Assembly: GCA_037441675.1 (NCBI GenBank)
Contig: JBBIRS010000002.1
Span: 172,633-236,632, forward strand
Length of the DNA: 64,000 bases
Direction of reading: 5' to 3'
DNA from: Planctomycetales bacterium
GTDB taxonomy: Bacteria > 4484-113
The translations under genes and the position numbers were made by a program. Shown piece by piece: positions 29,312-48,650 of the stretch; position 1 is the stretch's first letter; each line of letters begins with the position of its first letter. The notes beneath the pieces were generated by a model. That model saw only the letters and a list, made by a program, of their open reading frames with translations. It was not told the origin of the DNA and did not search any database.

Positions 29312-29422
29312 CCCTAAAAAACTTCTTCTCACCCAACAATTCTTATCCTTTCCGGCTATCATTAACATATTCTCTAAGTTTTCTAATTTTATTCAATTAC
29401 ATAAAGTAATAAGGCAGGATTA

Positions 29423-30472: not shown

Positions 30473-30596
30473 TTCTCATCTCCCACAATGAATTGTAACA
30501 TAGGTAATGAAATAATAGCGCAAATTTTTCTGATGAGATATTGTAAGGCTCTGCAAGGATGAATGAAGTTTGTAAAGGCTAGGTGAGGGAACCTGA

Positions 30597-30800
30597 GGAT
30601 TGTAAGTATCAGGGAGAAATCACTCCGCTGGAAAGGTAGTGTAGGGCGACCACCTGTGGGTCGCGGTCGCCTCATTCAGACTGTAGGGCGGGGTTTTATA
30701 CCCCGCCGAATTAGGAGTCATACAAGTTGACGCCCCGCCTATTGCGGGCAAGCTTAAAGGGAATCTCGGCGCGATACAAGTTCGCGCCCTGCAACTCTAC
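30597..30800. repeat. Composite copy B of the dispersed GC-rich repeat (GTAGTGTAGGGCGACCACCTGTGGGTCGCGGTCGCC; CTGTAGGGCGGGGTTTTATACCCCGCCGAATTAGGAGTCATACAAGTTGACGCCCCGCC; CGCGATACAAGTTCGCGCCC)
   Basis: Several hairpin-forming GC-rich units; each matches units in copies A (12.5 kb), C (44.3 kb) and D (62.3 kb). Confidence 0.45.
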
Positions 30801-30816
30801 CGACTGATGCTAACTC

Positions 30817-32580
30817 CTAATAGAAAATGGCAAACTTGAGATTACCGTTTGTATAGTCAGAGTAGCTAATTGCGGGATTTCCGTTAACTACCGCAAGTGA
30901 GGTGTACTCGCCCACATCACCAGCGCTATCAACGGTAACGATGTGCCACGCCATGTTCACGGTTATTGGCACGTAGTCAGTATCTGTTGAGCCATCGTCG
31001 TCGGTGATGCGGACGGTGGCGTTGTAGGTTCCACCGCTGTTGTAAGTGAATTGGACTGTGGAGTCGATGCCTGAATCGTAGTCGTAAGTCCCATCACCGT
31101 TCCAATCCCATTCAAACTTGGTGATGCTTCCACCGTCGGGGTCGTAACTTCCCGAAGCGTCAAAGTTTACCGTCAGGGGAGCATCACCAACCGTTGGACT
31201 GGCGGAAACAGACGCGATGGGTGGTTGATTCGTGGCGTAACCAGTATCAGGTGAGCTCCTCGGTCCTTCCCCGTCAGGCACTAGAGCTGAGACTTCATAG
31301 ATAAAGGTAACGTCATTGGTTACTGTATCGTTGAAAATAGTTGTGGGCGCAGAAACTGTCCCACGCTCCGAACCATCGCGATAAATCTTGTATCCGCTTG
31401 CCTGAGGAACCGCCTGCCAGCTGACAGTGATTATCTTGCTCTGGGTTCCATCGGATGCGGAGACGCCCCGCGGGACGCCAATCGCCCGCCAACCCTCCGC
31501 ACCAGAGCTTCTCTCGCTTCGCTCACTATCAGGTCCCGAATGAAGCGCTTCTACAAAGTAGAAGTAGTGAACACCACTAGTTCCACTCCAGCCCGCGGTG
31601 GTGTCATCATAGCTATTGCTTGGCGCTGGAACTTCAGTAATCTTTACCGCATCGCTTCCATTTGCGAGGCTTTCCCGGTAAATCCAATACCGAGTCGCAT
31701 TATTCACCGCATTCCAGCTCACTCGGACATTCAGCGCATCAGTCCCCTGAGTAGCAGTAACTCCAGTTGGAGTTGAAAGACTGCGATGCCCATAATCTCC
31801 CATTCCTCGTGGCTGTTCAACTCCAGAAATAACCGCCGAGACTGAGTAAAACCTTGGCGTATTCCATGGAGCGGTGGTATCGGAGAAGGTTCGTGTCGGT
31901 GCATCTACCTCGCCGATATTCTCAGGGCTCGCATCATTCTCATCAAGTCCGCGGTAAATAATGTACCTTTCCGCCAAAGGCTCCTCGCCCCAGGTTAGCT
32001 CAACTCTATCAGGAAATGTCCCATCACTAGCGATAACCTGACCCTGCCCGAGACTCGACCTCATTCCCTTAGCAGGCTGGCTGAGTGGACTGTCAATGTC
32101 CTCGCCAATCGCCTGCACAAAATACCACATCGGAACGCCAAACGGTGGCTCCGTATCAGCATAACTTGTATCAGCGGAGGGAAGCTCAACTATGAGCTGA
32201 GGCTCGTCTGTCTCGCTTTCCGCTCGATAAAGCCGATATCCAGTCGCACCCTCAACCGTACTCCATTGAACGAGGATTAAATCCTCATATGTTCCATCAG
32301 AAGCACTGACACTAGGCACCGCAAGCAGGCGCGTTCCCAAAATGTTACTAATTCCACCAAAGCCCGCATCGTTCCTTGCGCGAACCCCATAACGATATGT
32401 CTTGCCCGGCGTCCCTGATGTGTCCTTATAGGTCACAGTCGGCGCATTGATTCCAGCAAGAAGTGTCGGCGAATCCTCTGTATCTGGGTCTGCCCGCAAA
32501 ACTTGATAGAGAAATGTGTCAGGGTCAGGGTTGTTATCCCAAGAGAGAGACACGCCCGAAGTATCCTCGCTAACCAGCAA
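30817..32580 (-). CDS. Secreted protein: 5 Fn3-like repeats + PKD domain + one C-terminal propeller-type repeat. Probably the C-terminal portion of a longer frameshifted gene.
   Basis: About 90-aa repeats with (S/T)ASDGT...W...YR(L/I)YR. PKD unit KFEWDWNGDGTYD. The terminal WHIVTVDSAGDVGEYTSLAVVNGNPAISY repeat is the same as in the 14616 gene. The first Fn3 unit continues upstream of the annotated TTG start in this frame. Confidence 0.65.
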   Translation of the reverse strand: MLVSEDTSGVSLSWDNNPDPDTFLYQVLRADPDTEDSPTLLAGINAPTVTYKDTSGTPGKTYRYGVRARNDAGFGGISNILGTRLLAVPSVSASDGTYEDLILVQWSTVEGATGYRLYRAESETDEPQLIVELPSADTSYADTEPPFGVPMWYFVQAIGEDIDSPLSQPAKGMRSSLGQGQVIASDGTFPDRVELTWGEEPLAERYIIYRGLDENDASPENIGEVDAPTRTFSDTTAPWNTPRFYSVSAVISGVEQPRGMGDYGHRSLSTPTGVTATQGTDALNVRVSWNAVNNATRYWIYRESLANGSDAVKITEVPAPSNSYDDTTAGWSGTSGVHYFYFVEALHSGPDSERSERSSGAEGWRAIGVPRGVSASDGTQSKIITVSWQAVPQASGYKIYRDGSERGTVSAPTTIFNDTVTNDVTFIYEVSALVPDGEGPRSSPDTGYATNQPPIASVSASPTVGDAPLTVNFDASGSYDPDGGSITKFEWDWNGDGTYDYDSGIDSTVQFTYNSGGTYNATVRITDDDGSTDTDYVPITVNMAWHIVTVDSAGDVGEYTSLAVVNGNPAISYSDYTNGNLKFAIFY

Positions 32581-32589
32581 GCCGGTAAC

Positions 32590-33221
32590 AATCGCGGGCT
32601 CGGTTCTATACCGATAGCAACATCCGTTATCACCGCCTCAACGGTCACGCCACCTGGGTCCTCCTCCGCCTGAAAAACTCTGCGAAGTAAAGACCCAGAC
32701 TTAGGAACAATCGAAAATTCCGCCACAATTCCATCGGGAGTCATCGCTGAAGTCATCCTTGCGCTACCCTCATTCACCGCAAGAACAGTAATGTAATAGC
32801 GATTTCCAAAAGACTTGAATCGGGTTTTCAGGGTTTCCGACCTCACTTGAATTAGCACATCAACATCGGTAAATGGTCCAAACCATCGCCAAGAACCAAC
32901 GGAGTAATCCGCCAGTCCCACAAAATACGCAAGCGGAACATCCTCATCCCGCCCGCCTCCATACCTCGCCTCCAGCGTGTCAATCAGCGTTCGCAAAGGT
33001 TTCGGCTCAGCTCCAATATCCTGCCCATACATCACATAGGAATACTCCCCAACCTCGTATGCCCGCAGGCTCACCCTCGTCCCTTCAACCTCTATCGCAT
33101 ATTCACGCTCGCTCGTCGTTCCAGTTCCGCCGGAAAGAATATCCGAGCCAAGGGTCATCACCTGCATTCCTTGAGACACGTTTCTCACCTTGTCCGAAAA
33201 GAGAGAATCAAGAGAAAGCAC
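32590..33221 (-). CDS. N-terminal part of the same secreted protein (unknown domain with the ARYGGGRDED motif). The ORF-track tail to 32433 is an out-of-frame read-through.
   Basis: GTG start. The N-terminal ~210 aa are compositionally protein-like; beyond GIEP the ORF-track translation becomes junk while the downstream ORF's frame becomes Fn3-like. This indicates a +/-1 frameshift near 32600-32640. Confidence 0.5.
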
Positions 33222-33455
33222 ATCAGGCAGAGGTCCTGAGGAAGGTTTTTCTTGGGAAGCTGGCGGACTTGCGTTGCCCGCGCCAGCAGGCGTAAGCTAG
33301 AGTGCGGTAGGTCCTTTCCCTCCACCTCCCCCACAAGTGCTAGTTACTAGCGTAGTAAAAAGCAGACAAGTCAATAAACTAAAAGCCCTTCTTAATCCCG
33401 CCAATTCATAGCCAACTTTCCATTCTGTTTCAATCCTCATTTGTCATCATTCTCC

Positions 33456-34436
33456 TCACTGAGGCAACTCCTGCCTCACTCTAAAGTAAAGCTTATTTGA
33501 TTCAATGGGCGCAACCGCACCTTTCTTGGCAATTATCCAGAAATCTCCCGCGAGCGCATTGTCAACCGTTAGTGCTCGAGGAACAGCCGCGGAAAAAGTC
33601 AAAAATGCAGGCGGAAAATTCTCAAAGAACACGTCCGCGCTAACATCATTTCCCAGCGGGTCCTCCACGATAAGGTTATATGTAGAACTAACTTCTACGA
33701 CTAAGGGGTCCTCATTTGTGCCAGTTCCACCAAGTGGAGGTGTGGCTTGTCGGTCGACGCGCAGGCTAAGTGGTGTGGTGAAAAAGCGGACGAGTTTGCT
33801 TTCGTCGCCATACTCGTTCTCAGCTGAATAGGGCCGAACGCGGTAAATCCCCATCTCAACTGGTTCGGTAAGTTCGTAGGAAAAAGCCTTCCAGCCCGAG
33901 CCTTCCTTGTCAAAGGATGAAGTAATGGGAATTCTTGTTACTTCCTGCCACGAAAGTGCCTCATCAGACGAAACTTCAATAACATATCCGGTAACTTTGG
34001 AAAAGAAATTCACCGCAAGAGGTTGAACGTCCTGAATATTGATGACGACATCCATGTTGCCATCAATCACTATATCTAACTCATCCGTGGACGTTCCACC
34101 AAGCGCTTCGGAAGTGTGCCGAAAATGTAGCGCCAGTGGACGAACATCCTGAATGTCTACTCTGCCGTCCTGATTGTAATCACCGATGTTCTTGTAGCGC
34201 CATTCAAGTTGAAAAGTGCCTTCTACGTTAACAACAGCCAAATCTTCAACTTTATTCTGGGCACCGAGTGGAACGCGCGAAGAAAATTTTGATTCCCCAG
34301 ATAAGATCAGTGCATCTTGAAGTGCTAACTGAATGTGTGCGAATTCGGAAGATTCAACATTTTCTGGAGAGGTCAGCGCCCATATTTCGTTAATAGCAGC
34401 AGAAAGCGCTATATCATCGGGCGAATTAGTTTGCAT
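33456..34436 (-). CDS. Secreted dockerin-like module + Fn3-like + C-terminal domain protein. Its lipoprotein signal peptide lies upstream at 34485-34547, separated by an A7/T7 homopolymer frameshift.
   Basis: DYNQDGRVDIQDV...DGNMDVVINIQDV, paralogous to the N-termini of the 14616 and 26174 genes. Upstream, an ATG with a GGAG RBS encodes MRMILLFIGVVLLFF, and the adjacent frame continues SCGGGDDRF. A one-base change in the T7 run gives a perfect lipobox LLFSC. Confidence 0.65.
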   Translation of the reverse strand: MQTNSPDDIALSAAINEIWALTSPENVESSEFAHIQLALQDALILSGESKFSSRVPLGAQNKVEDLAVVNVEGTFQLEWRYKNIGDYNQDGRVDIQDVRPLALHFRHTSEALGGTSTDELDIVIDGNMDVVINIQDVQPLAVNFFSKVTGYVIEVSSDEALSWQEVTRIPITSSFDKEGSGWKAFSYELTEPVEMGIYRVRPYSAENEYGDESKLVRFFTTPLSLRVDRQATPPLGGTGTNEDPLVVEVSSTYNLIVEDPLGNDVSADVFFENFPPAFLTFSAAVPRALTVDNALAGDFWIIAKKGAVAPIESNKLYFRVRQELPQ

Positions 34437-34716: not shown

Positions 34717-35175
34717 TTGTTAATGACCGAGATGAGGATAAACTCAACTGCATTTCAAGATGGGGAAATGATACCCGCTAGATACACTGCGGATGGTGAG
34801 GATGTCAACCCGCCTCTGGAAATAACAGGCGTTCCTGATGATGCAAAGAGCCTTGTTCTCATTATGGATGACCCGGATGCGCCGGTGGGAGTTTGGGACC
34901 ACTGGATTGTTTTCAACATTTCACCAAGTATTGGCGAGATTTCTGAAAACTCAACACCAGAAGGTGGACTTCTCGGCAGAAACAGCTGGGGAAGGACAAG
35001 CTACGGCGGTCCCGCTCCGCCCTCAGGCGTCCATCGGTACTTCTTCAAGCTCTACGCTTTGGACACGACGCTTAATTTGTCCGCTGGTGCCACAAAGGCA
35101 CAAATTGAATCCGCAATGAAGGGTCACATCCTCGAGGAAGCTCAACTGATGGGCAAATACACGCGGAGAAGGTAG
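34717..35175 (+). CDS. YbhB/YbcL-family PEBP (phosphatidylethanolamine-binding-protein-like) protein
   Basis: DDPDAPVGVWDHWIVFNI...GPAPPSGVHRYFFKLYALD is the PEBP bacterial signature. Confidence 0.75.
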   Translation: MLMTEMRINSTAFQDGEMIPARYTADGEDVNPPLEITGVPDDAKSLVLIMDDPDAPVGVWDHWIVFNISPSIGEISENSTPEGGLLGRNSWGRTSYGGPAPPSGVHRYFFKLYALDTTLNLSAGATKAQIESAMKGHILEEAQLMGKYTRRR

Positions 35176-37241: not shown

Positions 37242-37901
37242 ATGAAAGAGGATAAAAATATAATTACTAAAAAGAAGTTCTATTGTGGTTTTTCTTTAAT
37301 TCTATTTTTACTTCTAACGATTTTAATGATATCCGCTTGTCCCAGACAATCCGAGAAATCAGCTCAAGAGTATGAGGCGCCAGATCATACAACAGCGAGC
37401 CCACCAAGCGAACCTGAAGAGCTGCCATCAGAGCCAGAAACAATAATGCCTGAGAAGAATGTCCTTAGAATTTGGTCTATTATGTTCGCAGATATGGGTA
37501 TGATGCAGGCGAGGTACACCGCAGATGGCGAAAACGTCAATCCGCCACTAAATATTGATGGCATCCCCGAAAACACGAAGAGCCTAGCTCTCATTATGGA
37601 TGATCCTGATGCGCCAAGGGGTACTTGGGTTCACTGGGTTGTGTTCAATATACCCCCTACGATAAAGGAAATCCCTGAGAACACAGTTCCTGAAGGTGCA
37701 GTCGTGGGCAAGAACAGCTGGGGGAAAAGCGCCTACGGCGGCCCTGACCCCCCAAGTGGAATTCATCGCTATTTCTTCAAACTATATGCCCTGGACACGA
37801 CCCTTGACTTGGATGCTTCCGCAACCAAAGCTAATGTTGAGAAGGCAATGGAGGGGCACATTCTAGCCCAAGCAGAGTTTGTCGGAAAATACGGTAGATA
37901 A
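37242..37901 (+). CDS. Lipoprotein-anchored PEBP (YbhB/YbcL) family protein, paralog of the 34717 gene
   Basis: Signal/lipobox (LLLTILMISACP), an acidic linker, then the PEBP core (DDPDAPRGTWVHWVVFNI...GPDPPSGIHRYFFKLYALD). Confidence 0.75.
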   Translation: MKEDKNIITKKKFYCGFSLILFLLLTILMISACPRQSEKSAQEYEAPDHTTASPPSEPEELPSEPETIMPEKNVLRIWSIMFADMGMMQARYTADGENVNPPLNIDGIPENTKSLALIMDDPDAPRGTWVHWVVFNIPPTIKEIPENTVPEGAVVGKNSWGKSAYGGPDPPSGIHRYFFKLYALDTTLDLDASATKANVEKAMEGHILAQAEFVGKYGR

Positions 37902-38135
37902 GATATAGATACTGAACGGTAGGATACTTATCAAGTATGCTTTATTAACTCGGCTAGACCTCCAAAGTGCGGTGACCCCTTGAGGCGGGGGCAATCTTGT
38001 ATTCCCCTAGTTAATTTCTCTATCAGTTTTCGATAGCCTCAGCTCGGTATTTGTCACCTATTTTCTTCACCACCGCAAGCATTTCTATCGCGTGACGATG
38101 TGCTCCTTCAATATCACCCTTTGAAATTAGCTCAT

Positions 38136-38477
38136 CTAGGATATAGCCCTCAAATGGCGGCTTGAACTCCCTAAGTTTTCGCTCAAAAGCAGACTCGAAA
38201 ACCTCCTCATACAATTCACCTCCTCTAGCATCACCCTTATCACCAAAGATGGGGCTTTTAATTCATCTGTCCTGACTGGCGAATCCTTTGAAGGAATTCT
38301 ATCCTTGATTACGAAGAGCCAAACCAATGCTGCCCCCCCCAATGCCCCTACCGCGTGTGCGTAAATCCCGAGATTCATATTCAAATGGAGGCTGATGAAG
38401 ATACCTGAAAAGACAAGCTGAAGAATGATCCACGAACCATATACCAAATGGCAGAAATATTCCTTATGTGTGGCCAC
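38136..38477 (-). CDS. Rhomboid protease, C-terminal fragment (continues the 38381-38791 ORF after a frameshift)
   Basis: IYAHAVGALGGAALVWLF carries the rhomboid catalytic His helix. It overlaps the N-terminal fragment in another frame. Confidence 0.5.
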   Translation of the reverse strand: MATHKEYFCHLVYGSWIILQLVFSGIFISLHLNMNLGIYAHAVGALGGAALVWLFVIKDRIPSKDSPVRTDELKAPSLVIRVMLEEVNCMRRFSSLLLSENLGSSSRHLRAIS

Positions 38478-38791
38478 AACTTGCCGGTGTAGATGTGTCC
38501 GAAGCTGAAATAATCATACCACACAAGCGAGGTTATTCTTGCCCTTGGATAGAAAATTAAGTAAACTGCAAGACCTCCTAAGATTGCCCCACCTGCGCCT
38601 AATCCTGGTAGGTTGCTTTCATAGCCCAGAAGAACGGTGACAACGCTTGCAATAAGCCCACATAAAATGTAAAAGATGAAATTCCTGAATCTTCCGAGAA
38701 GCCATTCAACGTTGTCCCCGAAAAGCCAAAGGGCATACATATTTCCGAAAATGTGCCAGAAGTTCGCATGCATAAACATTAATGTAAACAT
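38381..38791 (-). CDS. Rhomboid family intramembrane serine protease, N-terminal fragment (frameshifted)
   Basis: HANFWHIFGNMYALWLFG...GAGGAILGGLAVY carries the rhomboid catalytic Ser region. The ORF stops early. Confidence 0.55.
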   Translation of the reverse strand: MFTLMFMHANFWHIFGNMYALWLFGDNVEWLLGRFRNFIFYILCGLIASVVTVLLGYESNLPGLGAGGAILGGLAVYLIFYPRARITSLVWYDYFSFGHIYTGKLWPHIRNISAIWYMVRGSFFSLSFQVSSSASI

Positions 38792-39130
38792 AGTTATTCT
38801 AGCGGAATGGCTGTTCCAGGAACACTATCTACGGCAAGGATTCTCTTAGGAACTTCAGCCCATGTGTTCACGAAACCTTCAATGCCAAGGGGTGATGTCA
38901 GCTGAATGAAAAAACGAAAATGTTGGCGAGAATGAGAAGCTGGTTTACAACCGTCGCCGTGCAACTGGTGCGTAGTCACGAAGTGGTATGCCCATTACTG
39001 TTTGTAATCTAATATACCACTAAACGCACCTACCTTGCAAAATTTTTGTTTCAATTTGAAAAGCCTCAGGCTTCGTGAACCACTGTGGAGTTACTTCGCG
39101 GAGCAAAGTTCTACCTAAGTTTCGGTTAAG

Positions 39131-40393
39131 TTAGAATTTGAAGTTAAAGTCAAACTGCCACCTGCGGTAATCCTTTGGCGCGGAAAGGACTTTCTCATTT
39201 GCAAAGTACGTTAGTCCTAGGGCGGTGTTCTGGGAGAGTTGATAGGCGAAGCTGAATTTGTGACCTTTACCGTCCGTTCCACCACCTATAAAGTCTGAAT
39301 CGCTGAAAGCTCCAACCACCGCATCCTTCTCAAGTCTGCGATACTCCCAACCGAAGCTCCAGCTACCAGGGGCCTTTAACTTTCCAACGGAAATGCCATA
39401 GAGGTAGCCTGTGTCGTTAGTATCTGCGTCCCTGTTCCTGACGTAGTTTCCGTAAATGCTAGTGGGGGTCTCTCCTGCGTTGAACCCGAATTCGCCGAAA
39501 AGCTCGAACTCATTGAAGTCGTTAGTGTAGTAAACATCCTTTACTGTTGGATCAGGGTCTGCGGTCATCGTGTTTCCAAAACCCTTGGTGGAATCTACCA
39601 AGCCCTTGTTTCCCTTCATATTGGAGTAATTATGGACGCCAGCGCCGAGCGTGAACTGGCTTCCGCCTGCGGTCTTGTGAGTAACTCCAGCCTGTAAGGA
39701 AAGTATCTTTGTGTCGGATGCGCCGCTTCTCTCTTCCGCCCAGAGGTAGCCCGCGTTAAGGAAGGGTTTCGTATTCTCGTCGGAACTCGCAATCTTCAGC
39801 GCAATTCCCTCGGGAGTCAAGTCGCTATCCCAGAGTAGCTGACTACCGCCAGGGATGAAAAAAGGATTGTTCATCTTTCCGCCAATCACGCGAACCGCAG
39901 CAGTCTTGCTAGGATGCCAATCGAAGTAGGCTAGGTCAAGCCCAAAATCCTTTCTGGTAAATCCACCTCCCAAAGTTTGGTTTGTAGAAACGGGGTCAAA
40001 TCCGCCTGTGGAAAGACGAATTCCCAAATCCACTTGGTCGTTCACTTTGGCTCCAATCCCAAGCCTTAGCCTCATCCTATCCCTCTGGCGAAACTTTTTA
40101 TCCTCCTCGTCAATTCCTTCAAATCGGAAACGGTAATCGCCTGAAATCTTCAACTTTTCAGCCCAAGCCGGAGCAAGTTTTACCTCTTCCTGCTTCTTGG
40201 AAACGCTTGCAAGCTCCTCCTCTAGCGCTTTGAGCCTGGCGGAAAGGTCTTCAATAATCTCTTTCTGTTCCTCTATAATTTTCCTAAGCTCTGTGATTTC
40301 CTCTTCCACATTGGAGGTTGGCTCTTCTTGTGACAACGCAGGAATGGAAACAAATAGTGCAATAACCAATGGTATAAGGTATTTCTTTATCAT
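39131..40393 (-). CDS. Outer-membrane beta-barrel porin-like protein with an N-terminal periplasmic coiled-coil
   Basis: Signal peptide, a 60-aa heptad-rich acidic coiled coil, then alternating amphipathic beta-strand pattern ending in a C-terminal FDFNFKF (aromatic terminal residue typical of OM barrels). GGAGGA RBS; last gene of the Mo-enzyme operon. Confidence 0.55.
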   Translation of the reverse strand: MIKKYLIPLVIALFVSIPALSQEEPTSNVEEEITELRKIIEEQKEIIEDLSARLKALEEELASVSKKQEEVKLAPAWAEKLKISGDYRFRFEGIDEEDKKFRQRDRMRLRLGIGAKVNDQVDLGIRLSTGGFDPVSTNQTLGGGFTRKDFGLDLAYFDWHPSKTAAVRVIGGKMNNPFFIPGGSQLLWDSDLTPEGIALKIASSDENTKPFLNAGYLWAEERSGASDTKILSLQAGVTHKTAGGSQFTLGAGVHNYSNMKGNKGLVDSTKGFGNTMTADPDPTVKDVYYTNDFNEFELFGEFGFNAGETPTSIYGNYVRNRDADTNDTGYLYGISVGKLKAPGSWSFGWEYRRLEKDAVVGAFSDSDFIGGGTDGKGHKFSFAYQLSQNTALGLTYFANEKVLSAPKDYRRWQFDFNFKF

Positions 40394-40457
40394 AATTTCC
40401 TCCTTGATTGCTATTTTTCTGCCTTGTTTGCTTTATGTGAAAAGATGAAAGGATTGC

Positions 40458-43043
40458 TTATACCAAATTATCCAACTTTTGCACTAAGGTGAGCTTAGAG
40501 TCTATAAAGTGCTTTTCCACGGTAACAACGGTATCCATCCACCTTTGTTGGCCACCAATCGGCTCAGGGCTGTTCGGAATAATCCAGTTAGGATGAACAC
40601 CGTGATTCCCTTTCCACCAAATACGACCAAGGTCGGGCTCGTCATCCCTTCCAAAGGGGCTCTTCACGCCAGATGCATAGCGACCGTACTGCCAGTGACC
40701 TAAATGATGCGAAACGGCTATGACGCCTGGAATTATACCCTCGGTAATTCTTGCCTTAGTAACAATCTCTCCGATTTGGGACTTTATCCGTATCGTATCG
40801 CCATCGCTTATGCCAAATTTTCTCGCTGTTACAGGATTTATCCACGCGGGATTGTCATGGTAAATCTCGGTCAAATACTTGCAGTTTTGGGTTCTTGAAT
40901 GCGTCTGAGTAACGAACTTGAAGGTCGTAAGAACAAGGCTTTTCCCGTCAAGATTTTCGTGTTCTGGAATTGGCATCCATGAAGGAATAGGTGGAAACCC
41001 CTTATCCGCCAAGAATTGGGAGTATATTTCAAACTTGCCGGATTTGTTGATTTTATCAGGCGCAAATCCTTTGTAGGCAACGCCATCTATCATCTGCCCT
41101 ACGTACTTCTTATAGGCACCGGGAGTAGTCGTATAATCCTGTCCTGGCTCCCCTTTCCATATAACGCCAGTTTTCTCATCCACGATAGTACCCTTTAGCT
41201 CATCCTCGGAAAGAACTTTTTCAAAACTGCGATAGATGGGTTTAGCGTTCTTGTCATACCAAACACCGTATTTTCTCATAAAGTCAAAACCGCCAGCTTC
41301 TCTAACGCCTGGCGTGTTTCCGCAAGCATCACGCACAAACTCCTCGTGTGATGCAAATCCGAGGGGTCTGCCGACCATACCTGCAAGCTCGCAGGCAACA
41401 TCAGCAAAGTCTCTCGCTTCTCCAAGCGGGTTTATGGCAGGTTGCCGAATGTAATACTCCGGAATCTGGTCGTAGGAAACATGGTCTTCCAATGTCCATC
41501 TTTCTGGATAAGTGGCATCAGGAAGAATCAAATCAGCAAGATGCGCTGACTCGCTATAGTAGGGCGTAACAGCAACGTGAAAAGGAACCAGCTCCTCATC
41601 CTGAAGAACCTCTATGTTTCCCTGACAGTTGCCATTTACGTATACAGGATTGTAACAGTATGTTATATAGACATCTGGTCTGCCGTTCTTGCCTTCCTTT
41701 ATCATCCTAAAGACCTGATTGCTAACGTTATGAGTGGGATAGGCTATTCCCTCACCATCAAGGATGTTTAACGCCTTAGGCTTCTCCACGAAGTGGGGTT
41801 CGGGAAATGTGGATACCCACTTTGGCGCGACTGGTTTACACCTTCCGCCTTTAACGTCAATATTTCCGCAGAGAGCCTCCAGCATCAAGATTGCCCTTTC
41901 CGTTTGAACTCCGTTGTAGTGGGCAATCGCGCCACGATAGGAAACAATCGTTCCAGGTTTAGCTTTAGCGTAGGCAAGAGCAAGGCTACGAATCTTTTCC
42001 GCCTTCACACCACTAACGCCCTCCGCCCATTCTGGTGTGTATGGTGCCAGATGCTCCTTGAGCTGGGGAATTGTTACATTCGTCCACTTGTTTATGAACA
42101 ACTCATCATAAAGACCTGCTTCAATCACCGAGTTCGCCATCGCTAGCACAACTGCTAAATCCGTGCCAGGCTTAATTGGAATCCATTCGGTTGATTTGGC
42201 AGCGGTATTTGAAAGCCGAACGTCAAAGGTGTAAAGCGGAACGCCTCTTGATAGAGCGGATGTTACTCGCTGATTAAAAACATTGTGGGAAGTATGAGTC
42301 TCAAAAAAATTGCAACCAAAGTTGAGTATAAGGTTTGTATTTTCAACATCATTAACGTCGTAATGCTTGCCCCACGTTAGCTCCTGAGCAACCCACTTGC
42401 CGCCTTCGCAAATAGAGGTGTGATTACCAATGGTTTCCGAGCCAAGAGCCTTCATAAATATATTTTTGAGGATGGTTGCGTGACTTCCTTTCATTCGGCC
42501 ATAGTGGAACATAATCTTCTCGGGGGTGCCCTCATCCAAATTCTTCTTTATCCTTTCAGCGACAATTCCAAGGGCTTCATCCCAGGAGACTCTTTCCCAC
42601 CGCCCTCCACCCCTTGGGGTTCCGTTGACCCTTCTCATCGGAAAGAAGATTCTGTCAGGGTTGTAAACTTGGCTAACAGCTCCATGCGCCTTATTGCATA
42701 TTTTGCCACGAGTCCTGAGGGAGTTGGGATTTCCCTCCACGTGAGTTAGAATGCCATTTTTAACGAAAAACCAGAGGGAGCATCTAGTCACGCACTGCCA
42801 ACAGGCAGAAGGAACCACACCGGGAGGAGGCTCGATCCACCCGTTAACTCCCTGCGAGTTAGAGTAACCACTAGCTGGCGGTGGCGAGACTAGATTGGAG
42901 GCTCCGAATGCTATGCGCCTTGCTAATGCACCTCCACTGAAAATCAACGGAATTATTGCAGATAAGCCACTTCTCAGAAACTCCCGCCTGTTAAATTCCC
43001 TTATGTTAAACGCACAATCATTCAAGCTTCTGTTGCGCTTCAT
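40458..43043 (-). CDS. Tat-exported molybdopterin (bis-MGD) oxidoreductase catalytic subunit (Psr/Phs/Ttr/Arr-like)
   Basis: Twin-arginine leader (NRREFLRSGLSAII...ALA). N-terminal FeS0 cysteine cluster (CWQCVTRC...C). About 860 aa with molybdopterin domains II-IV. GGGAGGTG RBS. It overlaps the FeS subunit gene by 26 nt. Confidence 0.8.
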   Translation of the reverse strand: MKRNRSLNDCAFNIREFNRREFLRSGLSAIIPLIFSGGALARRIAFGASNLVSPPPASGYSNSQGVNGWIEPPPGVVPSACWQCVTRCSLWFFVKNGILTHVEGNPNSLRTRGKICNKAHGAVSQVYNPDRIFFPMRRVNGTPRGGGRWERVSWDEALGIVAERIKKNLDEGTPEKIMFHYGRMKGSHATILKNIFMKALGSETIGNHTSICEGGKWVAQELTWGKHYDVNDVENTNLILNFGCNFFETHTSHNVFNQRVTSALSRGVPLYTFDVRLSNTAAKSTEWIPIKPGTDLAVVLAMANSVIEAGLYDELFINKWTNVTIPQLKEHLAPYTPEWAEGVSGVKAEKIRSLALAYAKAKPGTIVSYRGAIAHYNGVQTERAILMLEALCGNIDVKGGRCKPVAPKWVSTFPEPHFVEKPKALNILDGEGIAYPTHNVSNQVFRMIKEGKNGRPDVYITYCYNPVYVNGNCQGNIEVLQDEELVPFHVAVTPYYSESAHLADLILPDATYPERWTLEDHVSYDQIPEYYIRQPAINPLGEARDFADVACELAGMVGRPLGFASHEEFVRDACGNTPGVREAGGFDFMRKYGVWYDKNAKPIYRSFEKVLSEDELKGTIVDEKTGVIWKGEPGQDYTTTPGAYKKYVGQMIDGVAYKGFAPDKINKSGKFEIYSQFLADKGFPPIPSWMPIPEHENLDGKSLVLTTFKFVTQTHSRTQNCKYLTEIYHDNPAWINPVTARKFGISDGDTIRIKSQIGEIVTKARITEGIIPGVIAVSHHLGHWQYGRYASGVKSPFGRDDEPDLGRIWWKGNHGVHPNWIIPNSPEPIGGQQRWMDTVVTVEKHFIDSKLTLVQKLDNLV

Positions 43044-43875
43044 CCTTTATACACCTCCCGTTCTGGTAAACGCCTTTGAGCTCCTCTTCAGTCATCCCAA
43101 TGTAAAAACACTTCGGTTCTGTGTTGATGCTTTCATCTCTGTATCTAAGGCTAGGCAAAGTGAGAATACTCTTGCCTTCCCTTCTTGCACTGGCAAGCGC
43201 CTTTGAAATGTCGCTACTTGGATCATTCAAGTTCCCGAAGAACCGAGCGCTATGGGGGCAGGCTTTCACGCAAGCAGGCTTATCACCAGAATCCACTCTA
43301 TGTACGCAGAGGGAGCATTTATTTGCCCGGTATCCGTTCTCGGTCTCAACGAGAGACCTTACCTGGTACGGGCAAAGGGCAACGCAGGCGCCGCAACCGA
43401 TGCATCTATCGTCGTATGCGTCCATCAAGCCGTTATCAACCAGAACTAAGCCATCTGGACGCTTGTAAGTCGCTCGCTTTTCATACTCAATCTTCTCACC
43501 GTTTGGTGCAATGTAAAGCGCCTTCTTTGGCTCCACGGGACACCTGCTAATGCAGATTGGCCTCTCGCAATGGTTGCAAAGCCAGGGAAGGAATAGCCTC
43601 TTCACTGAGGGGAATTTGCCCTTCTCGTGGATTATGACTTGGTTCCTGAAAACTCCCAGTGGAACATCAAATTCCTCTTTGCAGGCAACCGCGCAGGCAA
43701 AACATCCCTTGCATCTATTAAGGTCTATGAGAAATCCATAACGGGGTTTCTTTGCACTTTTCTCTTTGGCAGTATCTGGGGCTATTACACTTTCAACCAG
43801 AACCGCCGCAGAACCCATCGCCAGGGCGCCTTCCTTGATGAACTGCCTTCTTGTTATTGAAGTTACTTCATCCAT
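43018..43875 (-). CDS. Tat-exported 4x[4Fe-4S] ferredoxin-type electron-transfer subunit (TtrB/PsrB-like)
   Basis: Tat leader (TRRQFIKEGALAMGSAAVL). Four Cys clusters (CKGCFACAVAC, CNHCERPICISRCP, CIGCGACVALCP, CSLCVHRV...CVKACP). Confidence 0.8.
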   Translation of the reverse strand: MDEVTSITRRQFIKEGALAMGSAAVLVESVIAPDTAKEKSAKKPRYGFLIDLNRCKGCFACAVACKEEFDVPLGVFRNQVIIHEKGKFPSVKRLFLPWLCNHCERPICISRCPVEPKKALYIAPNGEKIEYEKRATYKRPDGLVLVDNGLMDAYDDRCIGCGACVALCPYQVRSLVETENGYRANKCSLCVHRVDSGDKPACVKACPHSARFFGNLNDPSSDISKALASARREGKSILTLPSLRYRDESINTEPKCFYIGMTEEELKGVYQNGRCIKDEAQQKLE

Positions 43876-44282
43876 AGTGAAATTCCTTGTGATAAGAGAC
43901 TCTTATTATAAGTTAATATTATAACAAATATTCATTCAATCATCCAATATTTCGCAGAGAATTTAACAGTCATTCGGCTTAGTCTCATATACCGTGAACG
44001 GAAAGCTTAGAAAGCAATAGCGTTATCATAGAAAGCTCGAACTAGATTTTGATTATTTAGACCTTAGTGATCATTAAAGTTGACGCCAACCAAATCCATC
44101 AACTCAGTCGCTAGTCTACTCATAAAAATAAACCTATTTACAAAACACCAAGTGACTGGTTCGACGGGGACTTCTTTTTATGAGGTGTGTGTAATTTACG
44201 AAAAGCTTAAATTATCGTTATTGTGGAAAAGGACATAGGCGAGGACCAGCCCAAAGCTGGCAAGCGTCCGTGATCCAAATAG

Positions 44283-44350
44283 AGGTACTGTGGGGTGCGA
44301 ACTCGTATCGCGCTGAAGCGGCGGGGCGCAAGTCCCCACCCTACAGGGTC
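44283..44350. repeat. Copy C of the dispersed GC-rich repeat (reverse orientation: GACCCTGTAGGGTGGGGACTTGCGCCCCGCCGCTTCAGCGCGATACGAGTTCGCACCCCACAG)
   Basis: It matches the CTGTAGGGCGGGG...CCCCGCC hairpin and the CGCGATACAAGTTCGCGCCC unit of copy B. Confidence 0.4.
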
Positions 44351-44379
44351 AAAACGTCACCACGTAATTCAAATACTAA

Positions 44380-45326
44380 TTGTCATTTGCAGTGAATTGG
44401 GCGAAGAATGCGGACTTATCCGCCCCGCCGAAGAAGTTCATCCCCACCGTCACGGTCGTTCTATCGTCAACTTTGTAGCTCACCTCGGGTTTGAAGGTTG
44501 AATGCATAGGCGTTCAGACGTGGATAAAACATCACCGCGCTCTGGAACACCTTGCCAAACTTCATCGCCGGTTGACGCCAATAACCCCGATTAGCGTAGA
44601 ATTAGGCGTCCCAATCACCGTGCTTCCTTCTGATTTTGAGGGCGAGTTCAATGTTCCCCACTTTCGGCTTTGGGCGGAGGTAGGAGCGGTCGGGAATCTG
44701 CGGTATCGGGTCAAAGTAAAGCACGCGGCTCCCATCAGGCACTTTATCCTTCGTGAAGAATGGCACTGCGATAATCTCAAAGCTCGTCTCGCCAGAGTAC
44801 TAGTTCAACTTGAGAGCGTCAACACCTGGTTTAAGAAAGTCAAGCGGCATTCCCGGAAGAAGAGCGTCCCAGTTCTTAGGCCAAACCTCTGCGATGAAAA
44901 AGAGGTCGCCTACTCCCCAAGTGATTCACTGCCTGCCATATCGCATATCCCACTTCTCCGCATAGTAACCAAATAGCTTCACGCAAATCCCCCTTCCACG
45001 CTCCCTCAGTGGCATCTTGATAAAGGTCTAGTTTAAAGAAGGCACGATAATCGGGGAAGTATGGCAGGGGAAAGCTCTCAAGGCGAAGACGCTCTTCCGC
45101 GCGCATTAGCTTCTGTTCAGATGCGCTCTGACCAGGGTAGTCAGCTGGATTTGCTCCTCCAATGCGAGCTGAGTAATTGCTCTGCCAGAATCCATGAACC
45201 TCAACCGCCATAGCTTGCCCTATTGCTTGTGGAGTTAGAATAATTGTTAAACCCACTAATAGGACAATCTTGGCAGGAACTCGTTTCATCATTGAAGCCA
45301 TTACTGCGGCGGGCGCTAAAGATTTT
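44380..45326 (-). pseudogene. Remnant of a DUF1302-family outer-membrane beta-barrel gene (multiple frameshifts and in-frame stops)
   Basis: An intact-looking N-terminus (MKKSLAPAAVMASMM...AVEVHGFWQSNYSARIGG...DYPGQSASEQKLMRAEERLRLES) and a C-terminal barrel fragment (VSYKVDDRTTVTVGMNFFGGADKSAFFAQF). Coding potential is scattered over three frames, with a TAG at about 44801. Confidence 0.5.
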
Positions 45327-45499
45327 TTCATGAATGCCGATGTTGTACTTAATTCCGCTGAACGTAACAATTGTTCTGTGCCCAGTCTTCACAGTTCTCA
45401 TCATCCGAAGGGTTGCGGTGGGAATACCCTGTATCGTTTCAATCTTATCCGAGGTGAAGACACGGTAAAGCTCGCCCTGCTTGTCGTAATACTCCTCCT

Positions 45500-46080
45500 T
45501 TAGCGGAGAAAAGTTGCCTTGTCAATCCAGCGAAGAACATAGGAGTATTCCGTTACGTTGCCCTTGGGAATGGATTTAATCATAAAGACGGGATTACCGT
45601 TAAAATTATCATCTTTCACGTACTCGTGTTTGTCTTCGCCAACCTCCCTACCGGAGACGTCTTCATAGTTAAAGTCTGATCCGACAAAACTTGAGCGCTT
45701 ATCATTAGCGGCGATGCGCTTTACCATTCTAACCGCGGGAATGAAAAGCCAGCGGTCGTCGTCCTTGCCAATGTTCTTCCATACCATAAAAGCCGTATCC
45801 CTCAGGTCTCCGGGCTCGCTGAAGTGAATGTAGTACCTCTGCTCACCGCCTTCCTTGATGTCCTTTCGGAGGATTGTCAGCTTGCGAGCTCGCTCCTTTC
45901 CGTCCTTATTGATAAGGCGCATAGAAACCTGCGCTCGCCAATCATCTCCGCCCTAGTAGTAAGCCAAGTAGCTCTTTTTAATAACTTCGTCCGCGTTGAT
46001 TTGCGCTGCTGCTGACGAACTTAACAGGCAAACAGCTAAAGTGGTGAACACCGTCCCTAGTAATACGAAAGTAATGCGTG
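45500..46080 (-). pseudogene. LolA-like/DUF1329 outer-membrane lipoprotein-sorting-like protein gene, interrupted by an in-frame TAG
   Basis: The upstream frame reads MNPRITFVLLGTVFTTLAVCLLSSSAAAQINADEVIKKSYLAYY-TAG-GGDDWRAQVSMRLINKDGKERARKLTILRKD... continuous with ORF 45500-45922. The family is normally partnered with MMPL exporters. Confidence 0.5.
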
Positions 46081-46086
46081 GATTCA

Positions 46087-46305
46087 TCAGTTAGCCTCCT
46101 GTTTGACATGAATGTCTGGGCAGGAACGAAGTCCTCCCCAATAAAGAAACGTCATCATCAGACACCAATTCGTGAAAGCTGACTTGAAAAGATTGAAGCC
46201 TACAAGGGCTGTAAAGAGATACCACCAAGAGCTGACGAAATATCCAAGAGAAAGGGAGAGAAGAACAAAAACTCCATCAATTCCTCTTAGAACTCTTTCC
46301 AACAT
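46087..46305 (-). CDS. DUF2892-like small inner-membrane protein
   Basis: 72 aa with two TM helices, the family-typical R-x-x-R-G-x-x-G N-terminus and a CP motif near the C-terminus. Confidence 0.4.
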   Translation of the reverse strand: MLERVLRGIDGVFVLLSLSLGYFVSSWWYLFTALVGFNLFKSAFTNWCLMMTFLYWGGLRSCPDIHVKQEAN

Positions 46306-46311
46306 TTTTGG

Positions 46312-48650
46312 TTAAACCTCCTTAAAGAAATATTTTTCAAATAGACTAATCACTCCTGGTAGGAGTATGAGCGTGGCAATTCCAGATAAAAGCATAATCG
46401 TGAAGAGATATACACCAACTGTCTCGTAAGAAGTGAGAGGGGCGAATAAAAGGGACGTAAAGCCGATAGCAATTATTACCGCGTTTCGCATAATCGCAAG
46501 GGCAGGACCGTTGAAGATGGAGCCTACAACTTCTCTAGCTGCTCCACCTTCACTTCCTCGCTGTTTGAATCTCTGCAGGAAATGGATGGCGTAGTCCACT
46601 GCGATCCCCAGCGTCATTGAAGAAAGTACAGCTAGTGGCATATCGTAGTCCTTGCCGACGATGCCAATAAAGCCATAGCTCATAGCGATTGTGAAGGTGA
46701 GTGGAATCATTGACGCAAGTCCCCACACTAGACTCCTAAAAAGAAATGCCATTAGGAGAAAGACTATTAGAAATGAGCCCAAGAACGACCTCATCATCCC
46801 CACCACCATTTTCTCTTGCCAAACTACGTTCAGGTAAGTTAGCCCAGCCCATTTTAGAGTAAAGCCCACCGGTGGCGGATACTTTTTCGCAAAGTCTGCC
46901 ACATCTCTCTCAACCGCAGTCATTTTCTGGTTGTCTCCGCTTTTCATCTGCACCCAGATGTTCGCGCTCGTGAATTCACAGTCAACGAAGTTGTCAAGCT
47001 CGTTTGGATCCCCACTGCTTTGAAAGAGAAAAAGAAACTGACTAATCGCATCGGATGAGCCAGGAAGGGAATAAGTTCCCTCCGCTTGCTCGCTTACTTC
47101 GTATCTAACAAGCTTAACAATATCAGCGATTGAAGTGGTTTTACCGATTACCGGTTTTTTGCGCAAGTTTCTCTTGAAGCGCCTCTATATACCGCATAAC
47201 CTCCGGCTCTTTAACGCCGTCAGGTATTCTGCCCCTAAGGACTAGATATGCGCTGTAAGTTCCAGCGAAATTCTCATTCATCAACCATTCCGCAACTCTT
47301 ATCTCGTGGTAAGGCTTGAACCACCTAACGGGATTATCGTTAACGTTGATTCTTGTGATTCCATAGATGATTCCATAGACCGCCAGCGCGGATAGGAAAA
47401 GAGTTATCGCCCAGATAAACTTTGCGTTGCTGAAGCTGAAATGCCCAATCTGATTGAGAAGACCTTTGCTCTGTGGGCATTCCGAAATCCCTATTGGGTC
47501 ATCTATACTTTCTCCACCATCAAGAGCCACAAAAGTATGCTGAAAGGCGTCAGTCCGCTTGAGAGCATTCTCTCATCTTCCCATCAGGAGGAAGAATGCT
47601 GGAATAAACCTCATAGTTAAGAACCATGCAACCATTACTTTAAATGCCACAAACATTCCGAAAACAAAGACAGGCGTAATTAGCGCTAGCCCTAGCGTAG
47701 CGAAGCCCACAGCGGTCGTGAGCGATGTGAAGAACATAGCCACAAAATGAGCGTTTATAACGAACCTGATAGTACTTGGCCTATCATTGAATCTCCCGCG
47801 ACAGTCGTGAAATTCCGAAAGAATATGAACGCTGTCAAGAACCGAAATTGGGAGTAGAAATATTGGAATCATTGAGCTCATTATGTGAACTGTAAAGCCA
47901 AGGCCACTTAAAAGTCCCATCGTCCAGATGATGGAAAGTATGGCGACAATCATCGGAGCAATTATCAGCGAGAGACTTTTGAAGAACCAGAGAGGTATGA
48001 GAAATACCAAAAGACCTGCAAGGGGAGCGGATATCGCCATTTGCAGGAACATTTCATAACCGAACTGATCTTTCGCAATGGGCAGACCCGCTATGTGATG
48101 CTCTTCCTTTACTCCTTCCTCCTTTATGATTCGCTCTATCTCTTTGCTTATGCGGTAGCTTTGGTTCTTTTCCTCAATGGGAATATAAATTGTGAGAGCC
48201 CTTCCATCCTCGAATACAAGCTTTCCAGCGGAAAGGGGGTTACTTAGAATTGTCTCACGCACAGTTTCCGCCTGTTCTCGGGACAAAATCTCACCTTCCA
48301 CAAAGCGAGATACAATTAGAAAACCTCCAGCATTTGTTATGTTGTCTGATGTGCTTGGACTTATCAAATCTTCAATGAGGACGCCGTCAATTTGGGCTAT
48401 TCTCTCGGTGATTCTCCTCAGTCGGTTTAGAGTGTCAGGGGTAAAAACCCCATTTATGCTCTTATCATCAAACACGCCGAGAACTATGAGGTCATTGACG
48501 CCAAAAGTTTCTTTAACCTCCCTATGAAAAAGTCGCAAGGGCTCGTCATAGGGAAGCATATTCTCGGAGTCGGTGTCAATCTTCACGCGGAGGAATCCAA
48601 GGGCAAAAATGGGAGTAAGTAGAAACGAAAGCCAAACTATTAGCCACTGC
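46312..48650 (-). pseudogene. MMPL/RND-superfamily exporter (HpnN-like) gene, broken into at least three ORF fragments and lacking a start codon
   Basis: Fragments 47573-48586, 47141-47530 and 46312-47166 together reconstitute a two-repeat MMPL transporter, with 6 TM helices and a periplasmic domain in each repeat. TM1 (VWLSFLLTPIFALGFLRVKIDTDSENMLP) has no in-frame start after an upstream TAA. Confidence 0.6.

Follow-up and report, generated by a model that had tools for sequence, protein, structure and literature searches.

A periplasmic molybdoenzyme of a widespread, largely uncultured clade related to Arr and Arx, encoded next to a phosphate-type porin in a Planctomycetales bacterium

We have analysed a stretch of 64,000 nucleotides (the window) from contig JBBIRS010000002.1 of a Planctomycetales bacterium, in which three consecutive minus-strand genes, located at positions 39131-43875, encode an iron-sulfur (FeS) protein (the B subunit), a molybdenum (Mo) catalytic subunit (the A subunit) and a β-barrel porin. 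The explanation that we prefer, and to which we give an even chance, is that the A and B subunits form an oxyanion oxidoreductase that is soluble in the periplasm and has arsenic as its probable substrate, and which lies in a neighbourhood of arsenic/phosphate type and has its electron partner encoded elsewhere.

According to this explanation, the enzyme would consist of two subunits, each carrying its own signal for twin-arginine translocation (Tat): the A subunit with the molybdenum bis(pyranopterin guanine dinucleotide) cofactor (Mo-bisPGD) and the cluster FS0, and the B subunit with four [4Fe-4S] clusters. A phosphate-like oxyanion, most likely arsenate/arsenite, would cross the outer membrane via a porin of this type, and would be reduced or oxidised in the periplasm by the A subunit, at a Cys-ligated Mo centre with an Arr-like lining of Arg, His, Thr, Lys and Tyr. 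The B subunit would relay the electrons, in one direction or the other, between the Mo centre and a partner encoded elsewhere; in relatives this partner is an NrfD quinol dehydrogenase (gene order B-C-A), a set of multihaem cytochromes with FeS-NrfD as a distinct module, or a complex of a Rieske protein and cytochrome b. The porin would act as a substrate gate, being neither a substitute for a membrane anchor nor an Mtr-like conduit, and its adjacency to the enzyme would reflect the arsenic/phosphate-type neighbourhood, the pst genes having been lost from the site in the window.

Gene structure of the operon

The three genes are intact open reading frames (ORFs), found in the order and at the positions that had been proposed in the initial annotation, a reading of the nucleotide sequence that preceded our analysis:

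43018-43875, minus strand: FeS protein (B subunit), 285 amino acids, intact ORF
40458-43043, minus strand: Mo catalytic subunit (A subunit), 861 amino acids, intact ORF
40394-40457, minus strand: spacer separating the Mo and porin genes, 64 nucleotides
39131-40393, minus strand: β-barrel porin, 420 amino acids, intact ORF

Regarding the two junctions that had been reported, the 64-nucleotide gap between the Mo and porin genes stands, while the "26-nt junction" is in fact an overlap of 26 nucleotides between the FeS and Mo genes, which measures 23 nucleotides in the closest relative of the window, locus L001. The 64-nucleotide gap contains a single weak σ70-like match (minus strand, 40441-40413) and no terminator-like site, and promoter and terminator sites are no more numerous over the region than in shuffled sequence. 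The gap may hold a promoter of the porin's own, which leaves co-transcription of the BA genes with the porin gene as a possibility only; co-regulation of the three genes is something that we infer. The upstream regions of related porins, searched for a Pho box, contain no conserved motif in an alignment of four regions, which was uninformative.

The reported absence of an NrfD/PsrC-type membrane anchor has been corroborated, as a tblastn search of the 64-kb window with NrfD seeds has found none, and the reported absence of multihaem cytochromes holds as well: among the window ORFs of at least 90 amino acids, only one, a di-haem ORF, contains two or more CxxCH motifs. Seeds for a TorD chaperone and for the X/S/R regulators described below likewise gave no tblastn match in the 64-kb window. 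The possibility of a PsrC-like anchor gene beyond 43.9 kb has been rejected, the NrfD search being without a match in the window; the "degraded region" that had been noted at 43.9-44.3 kb is an AT-rich intergenic stretch that holds no remnant of an anchor gene.

The catalytic subunit and its clade

The A subunit exceeds the gathering cut-offs of PF04879 (Molybdop_Fe4S4), PF00384 (Molybdopterin) and PF01568 (Molydop_binding), and its motif NRREFLRSG agrees with the Tat export that had been annotated. With these domains, a four-cluster B partner and Tat export of both subunits, the enzyme is a member of the DMSO (dimethyl sulfoxide) reductase superfamily (Mo/W-bisPGD enzymes, or complex iron-sulfur molybdoenzymes, CISM). 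The curated NCBIfam models score well below their cut-offs (PhsA 319 bits against 694, ArrA, i.e. NF041714, 195 against 1600, and TtrA 103 against 1750); by these cut-offs the enzyme lies outside curated Ttr, Psr/Phs and Arr, the families that had been named as nearest. The closest sequences in the PDB are ArrA (6cz7) and PsrA (2vpw), both at ~1e-53, and the profile of the enzyme family aligns over its full length with ArrA and in pieces with PsrA.

Homologues of the A subunit are numerous, and their conservation is unusually high, with identities of 53-83% across many phyla, including Aminicenantes, Glassbacteria, Omnitrophota, Planctomycetota, Nitrospirota, Nitrospinota, Marinimicrobia, Desulfobacterota and Proteobacteria. 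When a single genome of each species was scanned, the family was located in 334 species, nearly all of them represented by metagenome-assembled genomes, and the best 120 homologues of one family member all come from uncultured organisms; the family is frequent in sulfidic and oxygen-minimum-zone habitats. A rare cultured carrier is Sedimenticola hydrogenitrophicus SB48 (L088), which has a B-C-A-D operon with two AioX-like genes nearby.

The phylogenetic placement that the initial annotation had suggested as a check has been carried out with a neighbour-joining tree, whose references, taken from annotated plasmids and the PDB, are ArxA (Sulfuricella), ArrA (Shewanella), TtrA, PhsA and DmsA. The family is monophyletic (100% bootstrap), and the A subunit is thereby placed in a clade of its own, outside the Arr+Arx clade (98%), Ttr and Phs. 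The sister of the family is an enzyme encoded on a plasmid of Azoarcus sp. KH32C (77%), the deeper nodes being weak, and within the family the window and L001 cluster with two B-C-A loci (100% bootstrap). The identity of the window A subunit is 29% to ArrA, 30% to ArxA, 24% to TtrA and 29% to PhsA.

The family has its own variants of three motifs that can be compared with those of Arr and Arx:

Substrate motif: HYGRMK in the family, RGRY in Arr, YGRGWG in Arx
Mo-ligand motif: NH(T/S)SIC in the family, SHSSVC in Arr, GHSSMC in Arx
C-terminal motif: GHW(E/Q)YGRYAS in the family, GHWAYGRYAS in Arr, GHWGMGRWT in Arx

In the window these motifs read HYGRMK, NHTSIC and GHWQYGRYAS, with Cys212 as the predicted Mo ligand. 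The Gly-Arg of the substrate motif is common to the family, Arr and Arx and is absent from Ttr, Phs and Dms, where the H-(S/T)-S-x-C and GHWxYGRYAS motifs are absent or weaker. The arsenate-site residues of ArrA, which we take to be R165, Y166, H189, S190, C193, K198 and Y210, are paired in the HMMER alignment with the invariant residues R183, H208, T209, C212 and K216 and the near-invariant Y228 of the family; Y166 pairs with Met184. In the FS0 motif (C-x2-C-x3-C), Asp takes the place of the third ligand in 15 of 22 family members, as it does in the enzyme of Azoarcus KH32C, and Cys is found there in the window (residue 88, ~42780-42782), in L001 and in five others.

Judging from its placement and its motifs, the clade is a distinct, very widespread and almost wholly uncultured lineage of the DMSO-reductase superfamily that is related to Arr/Arx. 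The literature that we have searched assigns no function to it. RBG-1 and OP1 genomes have been noted to contain a sister of Arr/Arx that branches deeply and whose binding pocket is not conserved (PMC3903129), and phylogenies of wide scope distinguish three clades, i.e. Psr/Phs/Srr, Arr/Arx and Ttr/Srd/archaeal Arr, and mention unnamed Cys-ligated branches (PMC10100899). The "arrA" of NaphS2 scored just 237 bits against the arrA model (10.1101/2020.10.18.342550) and may be a member of the window enzyme's family.

The iron-sulfur subunit

The twin-arginine motif TRRQFIK, read from the sequence of the B subunit, supports the Tat export that had been annotated for this subunit too. The B subunit matches Pfam Fer4_11 and contains four Cys groups (CxxCxxCxxxC, CxxCx4CxxxCP, CxxCxxCxxxCP and CxxCxnCxxxCP); no C-terminal transmembrane helix is evident in its sequence. 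Its best NCBIfam matches are TtrB (161 bits, cut-off 416), DsrO (151 bits, cut-off 200) and NrfC, all below cut-off, and it is 35.6% identical to an annotated TtrB and 72% identical to its L001 orthologue. It is thus predicted to be a Tat-exported, soluble periplasmic electron-transfer protein with four [4Fe-4S] clusters, resembling TtrB, DsrO and NrfC.

Sensors and arsenic genes near the enzyme family

In order to describe the gene contexts of the enzyme family, ORFs have been mapped in 87 distinct loci. Ahead of many of the family operons, a periplasmic binding protein (X) is encoded along with a histidine kinase and a σ54 activator; X proteins, accompanied by σ54 regulators, occur in 19 of the 87 loci, in at least five phyla. 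One family X protein matches ArrX at 4e-54 and AioX at 6e-49, with just 7e-21 for PtxB; an X protein of the family is 38% identical to genuine ArxX and 23% identical (E = 4e-4) to the sensor domain of TtrS, values on which TtrS-type sensing has been rejected; and the Azoarcus X protein matches AioX at 1e-61. The cysteine of the AioX pocket and its flanking motifs are kept in family X proteins (pocket residues from PMC5908839), and proteins of this kind bind the substrate of the cognate Mo enzyme (PMC5908839). In a locus from Marinimicrobia (L063:4419-6491), an upstream sensor histidine kinase is fused to a MobA-like NTP-transferase domain of the molybdenum cofactor guanylyltransferase type.

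Arsenic resistance genes are found in the same surroundings: an ACR3 arsenite pump is encoded within 10 kb in six family loci, and homologues of low-molecular-weight phosphatases, which we read as ArsC-type, in three. In a Brocadiaceae locus (L050:1416-15110), the genes pstSCAB-phoU-FeS-NrfD-Mo-TorD-arsR-acr3-arsC follow each other on one strand, and similar arrangements occur in loci from Scalindua, Marinimicrobia and Desulfobacterales. Genes of the pst/pho type are commonly found in arsenic islands, and if this is the general pattern, the place of the window enzyme beside a Pho-type porin fits it.

The sister enzyme of the family lies in a cluster that has not been described before, on plasmid pAZKH of Azoarcus sp. 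KH32C (L089, 53684-71996), beside arsA and arsB, the latter annotated as an ACR3-family arsenite efflux transporter. There, the block FeS-NrfD-Mo-TorD, with additional FeS and hypothetical genes, diverges from genes that encode a histidine kinase, a σ54 regulator and a sensor resembling AioX. The Mo subunit is 39% identical to that of the window. We have rejected the identification of this locus as a canonical Azoarcus arx cluster, its order being B-C-A-D and the arx cluster of strain CIB being arxB2ABCD (PMC6683785).

Based on these contexts, we favour an arsenic oxyanion as the substrate, with a reaction direction that is possibly host-dependent; the earlier suggestion of an oxyanion such as arsenate was a reasonable one. 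Two other candidates have been considered. A phosphite oxidase, an idea that arises from the PhnD-like sensors and the pst genes, has been given less weight, since the matches of the sensors to ArrX/AioX are much stronger than those to PtxB/HtxB (187 vs 78 bits). The antimonite oxidase NaoABC (PMC11521347) belongs to a different family, being Aio/Nap-like with a Rieske subunit.

Several observations weigh against an arsenic substrate. The X/S/R sensors, TorD, operon-adjacent ars genes and an electron partner are all absent from both the window and L001, so that it is relatives with no more than 52-64% identity that provide the link to arsenic. The X proteins of Marinimicrobia do not have the pocket Cys, and X proteins are known to track host taxonomy (PMC5908839). 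The defining Arr/Arx motifs are not found in the family, which has HYGRMK, and Met in place of Tyr166 of Arr; the B subunit is closest to TtrB and DsrO, which keeps a sulfur oxyanion in consideration; and none of the clade's members has been characterised.

The comparison with ArrAB and ArxAB summarises both sides. Like them, the window enzyme has a Tat-exported A subunit that carries Mo-bisPGD and has its Cys ligand within H-(S/T)-S-x-C, a four-cluster B subunit, a Gly-Arg in its substrate motif and GHWxYGRYAS as its C-terminal motif; anchor-less AB versions exist, and among the relatives of the window enzyme there are TorD chaperones, σ54 regulators and XSR sensors that belong to the same subfamily. 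It differs from them in its low identity (29-30%) and separate clade, in an ArrA score of 195 against 1600, in having HYGRMK instead of (R/K)GRY or XGRGWG, in a Tat signal of the B subunit's own and in the order B-(C)-A, as opposed to A-B or B2-A-B-C-D. It is therefore not classified as ArrA, by its NF041714 score, its position outside the Arr+Arx clade and the absence of (R/K)GRY, nor as ArxA, by the absence of XGRGWG and of the arxB2ABCD arrangement, the window order being B-A (as compared with the genuine Sulfuricella arx, L174).

The porin and its kinship with phosphate operons

The barrel protein has a Sec signal and matches Pfam Porin_5 (1.7e-50). Its AlphaFold2 model (mean predicted local distance difference test score, pLDDT, 82.6) consists of a signal peptide, a long helix at residues 29-70 and a barrel; the N-terminal coiled coil and β-barrel that had been annotated are both present, and the structure prediction that had been recommended in order to count the strands gives 16. 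The best Foldseek match is OmpM1 of Veillonella (6e-16), followed by OprB, porins of the OmpF/OmpU type and OprP. The residues Arg88, 90, 106, 108 and 110 are invariant among the relatives and alternate along strands 1-2 of the model, a pattern compatible with an OprP-like anion ladder. The protein is probably a trimeric, anion-selective 16-strand porin with a coiled-coil stalk, as far as can be predicted. With OprP/OprO/PhoE it shares the 16-strand barrel, the alternating arginines and, in its relatives, the position at the head of a pst operon after phoBR, and it differs from OprP/OprO in being a Porin_5 protein (similarity to Porin_O_P is faint in the relatives) that is detached from pst in the window. 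With OmpM it shares the coiled-coil stalk followed by a barrel, and it differs in having no SLH domain.

The gene contexts of the porin relatives have been compared in 80 metagenomic loci and four further loci, 56 of which have enough downstream sequence. The genes pstSCAB-phoU directly follow the porin gene in 44 of these 56, with a Mo gene nearby in only two. Two relatives, at 71% and 47% identity, lie in the order phoB-phoR-porin-pstS-pstC-pstA-pstB-phoU, and the linkage to phoBR/pstSCAB-phoU recurs in L001, L090 and L091-93. By similarity and gene context, the porin belongs to the group that normally precedes pstSCAB-phoU and is probably of the Pho-regulon type, rather than a dedicated porin that takes the place of a membrane anchor, as had been proposed.

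The locus L001 contains FeS-Mo-porin-pstSCAB-phoU, and in both L001 and L090 the pstSCAB-phoU block is situated between the porin and genes for PEBP-family and NAD-binding proteins. In the window, pst genes are absent beside the porin; the same flanking PEBP/NAD-binding genes are present, and the place of the pst block is occupied by a frame-split rhomboid gene, broken across the overlapping frames 38381-38791 and 38136-38477, with a Rhomboid domain (1e-20) on a piece of 136 amino acids.

A β-barrel gene occurs within 5 kb in 27 of the 87 family loci, usually immediately upstream of the FeS gene and on the same strand, and the porins employed are non-orthologous: Porin_O_P, SLH-porin, Porin_4, Porin_5 and a barrel of ~440 amino acids without a Pfam match. 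A second family of coiled-coil barrels adjoins the enzyme in L180 (69% identical), L181 (71%) and L005, i.e. in the window's own subclade. The initial annotation had asked for a search for such synteny, allowing that the barrel might co-occur with the Mo genes only in this genome; since porins adjoin the enzyme in 27 of the 87 distinct loci, this is not the case. [quoted passage not shown] We take the recurrence to mean that lineages with outer membranes poorly permeable to oxyanions have, more than once, recruited an anion channel through which the substrate enters, and not that an anchor has been exchanged for a porin.

It is somewhat unlikely, in our judgement, that the juxtaposition is incidental, the porin being a remnant of a porin-pstSCAB-phoU phosphate-uptake operon with no tie to a Mo enzyme whose substrate would be unrelated to phosphate-like anions. 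The adjacency in the window could indeed be incidental, because the relatives of the porin are almost always found without Mo genes and L180, with a 69% identical enzyme, has unrelated genes and no porin downstream; these two points also count against the explanation that we prefer. The pst kinship of the porin, the position of its 71% and 47% relatives after phoBR, the promoter-like site in the 64-nucleotide gap and the loss of the pst genes from this site in the window point in the same direction. They are opposed by the occurrence of unrelated porin families directly beside BA in the 27 loci, L180, L181 and L005 among them, and by the fact that in remote lineages, too, pst genes are contiguous with those of the enzyme (in the anammox bacteria L050 and L035).

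Comparison with sulfur-oxyanion systems

We also regard it as unlikely that the enzyme is a periplasmic reductase of sulfur oxyanions or polysulfide (tetrathionate, thiosulfate, polysulfide or sulfite), anchor-less and similar to MOLY or Ttr, with the anion porin admitting its substrate. The best named matches of the B subunit are TtrB and DsrO; PhsA gives the best NCBIfam score of the A subunit, and the Joint Genome Institute (JGI) labels some homologues Psr/Phs; ttrBCA has the same B-C-A order as 41 of the 87 loci; genes for MOSC and MOT1 are encountered repeatedly in the vicinity of the family operons; and the family is common in the sulfidic and oxygen-minimum-zone habitats mentioned above. 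In addition, the anchor-less MolyAB with TorD is conserved jointly with a MOSC protein and a porin presumed to be phosphate-selective, and an OprO/P-like porin lies beside a TtrBCA homologue (PMC9676032, PMC12998232, PMC13490349).

Against this assignment, the curated models of sulfur reductases all score far below cut-off; the clade stands apart from TtrA and PhsA, without their motifs and with those of Arr/Arx; the adjacent sensors are of the AioX/ArrX type and not TtrS; rhodanese, TusA and DsrE are absent from the larger clusters of neighbouring genes, for which only some representatives have been annotated; and the best 120 homologues of one family member, all uncultured, include no cultured MOLY-carrying disproportionator.

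The individual systems compare as follows. TtrBCA resembles the family in the B-C-A order of many members, in a Tat-signalled, TtrB-like B subunit (35.6%) and in the OprO/P-type porin reported beside its homologue in Dissulfuribacter. It differs in that the window A subunit is ~160 amino acids shorter than TtrA (~1020 amino acids), 24% identical to it and scored at 103/1750 by the TtrA model, in that the B subunit reaches 161/416 with TtrB, in the sensor type of the family, and in the window having no C subunit, i.e. no NrfD-type gene. PsrABC/PhsABC differ from the window enzyme in the PhsA score (319/694), in having the order A-B-C rather than B-A, in the presence of an anchor and in forming a separate clade. 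MOLY (MolyA, MolyB and the TorD-like MolyC of sulfur-disproportionating Desulfobacterota), for which a role in sulfur disproportionation has been proposed, is similar by description, being an anchor-less, Tat-exported AB enzyme of unknown substrate with a TorD-type chaperone (as in 72 of the 87 family loci) and with porin and MOSC genes co-occurring; it differs in having no cultured carrier among those 120 homologues, and in its chaperone gene, which the window does not have.

Electron partners across the family

The TorD-type chaperone gene that is found in 72 of the 87 family loci is absent from the window and L001. A gene for NrfD, located between B and A (order B-C-A) or nearby, occurs in 41 of the 87 loci. 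Other loci have other partners: those of Desulfobacterota contain an 11-haem cytochrome, then B, A and the chaperone, and after these an 8-haem cytochrome with another FeS protein and NrfD; one locus from Nitrospinota contains a NapC-type multihaem cytochrome; and in L181 (71% identical) the BA genes are directly followed by those for a Rieske protein, cytochrome b and a c-type cytochrome (L181:5540-7466), linking the molybdoenzyme with a bc-type complex. Because the tree groups the window and L001 with B-C-A loci, we regard the anchor-less state of the window as one arrangement among several that can replace each other; loss may have produced it, a direction of change that we infer. AB enzymes without an anchor have precedents: in Shewanella, CymA is the partner of ArrAB (PMC2762525), and the MOLY cluster encodes another (PMC9676032, PMC12998232).

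The di-haem c-type cytochrome of the window (349 amino acids, 29423-30472, minus strand) is encoded ~9 kb from the operon and is the only candidate for a soluble electron carrier in the 64 kb; it has a weak SoxA/TsdA-like domain (E = 8e-4, below cut-off).

Among the porin-bearing family loci, 22 are without NrfD and five have it (odds ratio 6.6, Fisher p = 4e-4). This pattern largely tracks taxonomy, as the record titles of NrfD loci are mostly proteobacterial and those of porin loci mostly of other phyla.

Barrels of the Mtr type have ~26-28 strands, and a barrel of 16-strand size is too small for a 95-kDa enzyme or a cytochrome. The model of the initial annotation, in which the barrel replaces the anchor and the enzyme or its electron conduit reaches the cell surface as in MtrAB/DmsEF, is consistent with a β-barrel gene tightly linked to a respiratory oxidoreductase operon that has no inner-membrane anchor or multihaem cytochrome, and with the scarcity of NrfD in porin-bearing loci, but we have rejected it as highly improbable, since the 16-strand, OmpM1-like fold with diffusion porins as its best structural matches rules out an Mtr-like barrel, no decahaem gene of the MtrA/DmsE type is present in the window, the porin belongs to a family of phosphate-uptake porins whose relatives lie in pst operons, five loci carry a porin and NrfD together, and anchor-less relatives use Rieske/cytochrome b or multihaem cytochromes.

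Implications

The clade is widespread in Nitrospina, Scalindua, Marinimicrobia and Rhodospirillales of oxygen-minimum zones and in Desulfobacterota of sediments. We tentatively advance a broader possibility, to which we give less than an even chance: that the clade is an unrecognised third lineage of respiratory arsenic-oxyanion oxidoreductases, beside Aio and Arr/Arx. Such a lineage would be defined by HYGRMK, the order B-(C)-A-D and, mostly, an Asp in place of the third FS0 Cys; its sensors would be of the ArrX/AioX type, its substrate would arrive through phosphate-type porins, and it would connect to interchangeable NrfD, multihaem and Rieske/cytochrome b modules. If so, much of environmental arsenic respiration would be invisible to the present arrA, arxA and aioA markers. 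If the clade acts on arsenic or another phosphate-like oxyanion, a widespread and unannotated enzyme would be added to the marine and subsurface cycles of that element, its 334 species-level carriers including key nitrifiers of oxygen-minimum zones, anammox bacteria and sulfate reducers, and "arrA-like" signals that score weakly against arsenic gene models would be explained in part. The repeated recruitment of anion porins to operons of periplasmic molybdoenzymes in non-proteobacterial diderms suggests that the permeability of the outer membrane to oxyanions limits respiration in such lineages. With respect to the locus itself, the finding is a corrective one: it is not a new Mtr-like system for respiration at the cell surface, and the lead lies at the level of the family.

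Surroundings of the operon

The operon is bordered by the following features:

43876-44290, minus strand: AT-rich intergenic DNA, presumed promoter region upstream of the FeS gene (sequence reading and tblastn)
38023-38979, minus strand: fragments of the frame-split rhomboid-family gene (ORFs; Rhomboid domain)

Between the Mo operon and an MMPL operon, two plus-strand ORFs (44295-44976, 68 and 161 amino acids) have no Pfam match; we suspected them of being a remnant of a group II intron reverse transcriptase or mobile element, a suspicion that found no support in Pfam. In the region that follows (44876-48586, minus strand), the gene for an MMPL/RND-type transporter is broken into three ORFs (47573-48586, 47141-47530 and 46312-47166), after which come a truncated LolA-like ORF (45500-45922) and an ORF of 164 amino acids. 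The split could represent frameshifts, pseudogenes or assembly errors; the adjoining Mo operon is intact.

On the other side of the operon, paralogues of the PEBP family are located at 34717-35175 and 37242-37901 (both plus strand), and between them lie a fused nucleoside-kinase/dCMP-deaminase gene and a gene for an FAD/NAD-binding reductase, which also flank the loci L001 and L090. Further away, at 26174-34436 (minus strand), large secreted proteins of 1064, 587 and 326 amino acids are encoded, with PKD, fibronectin type III and dockerin-type domains.

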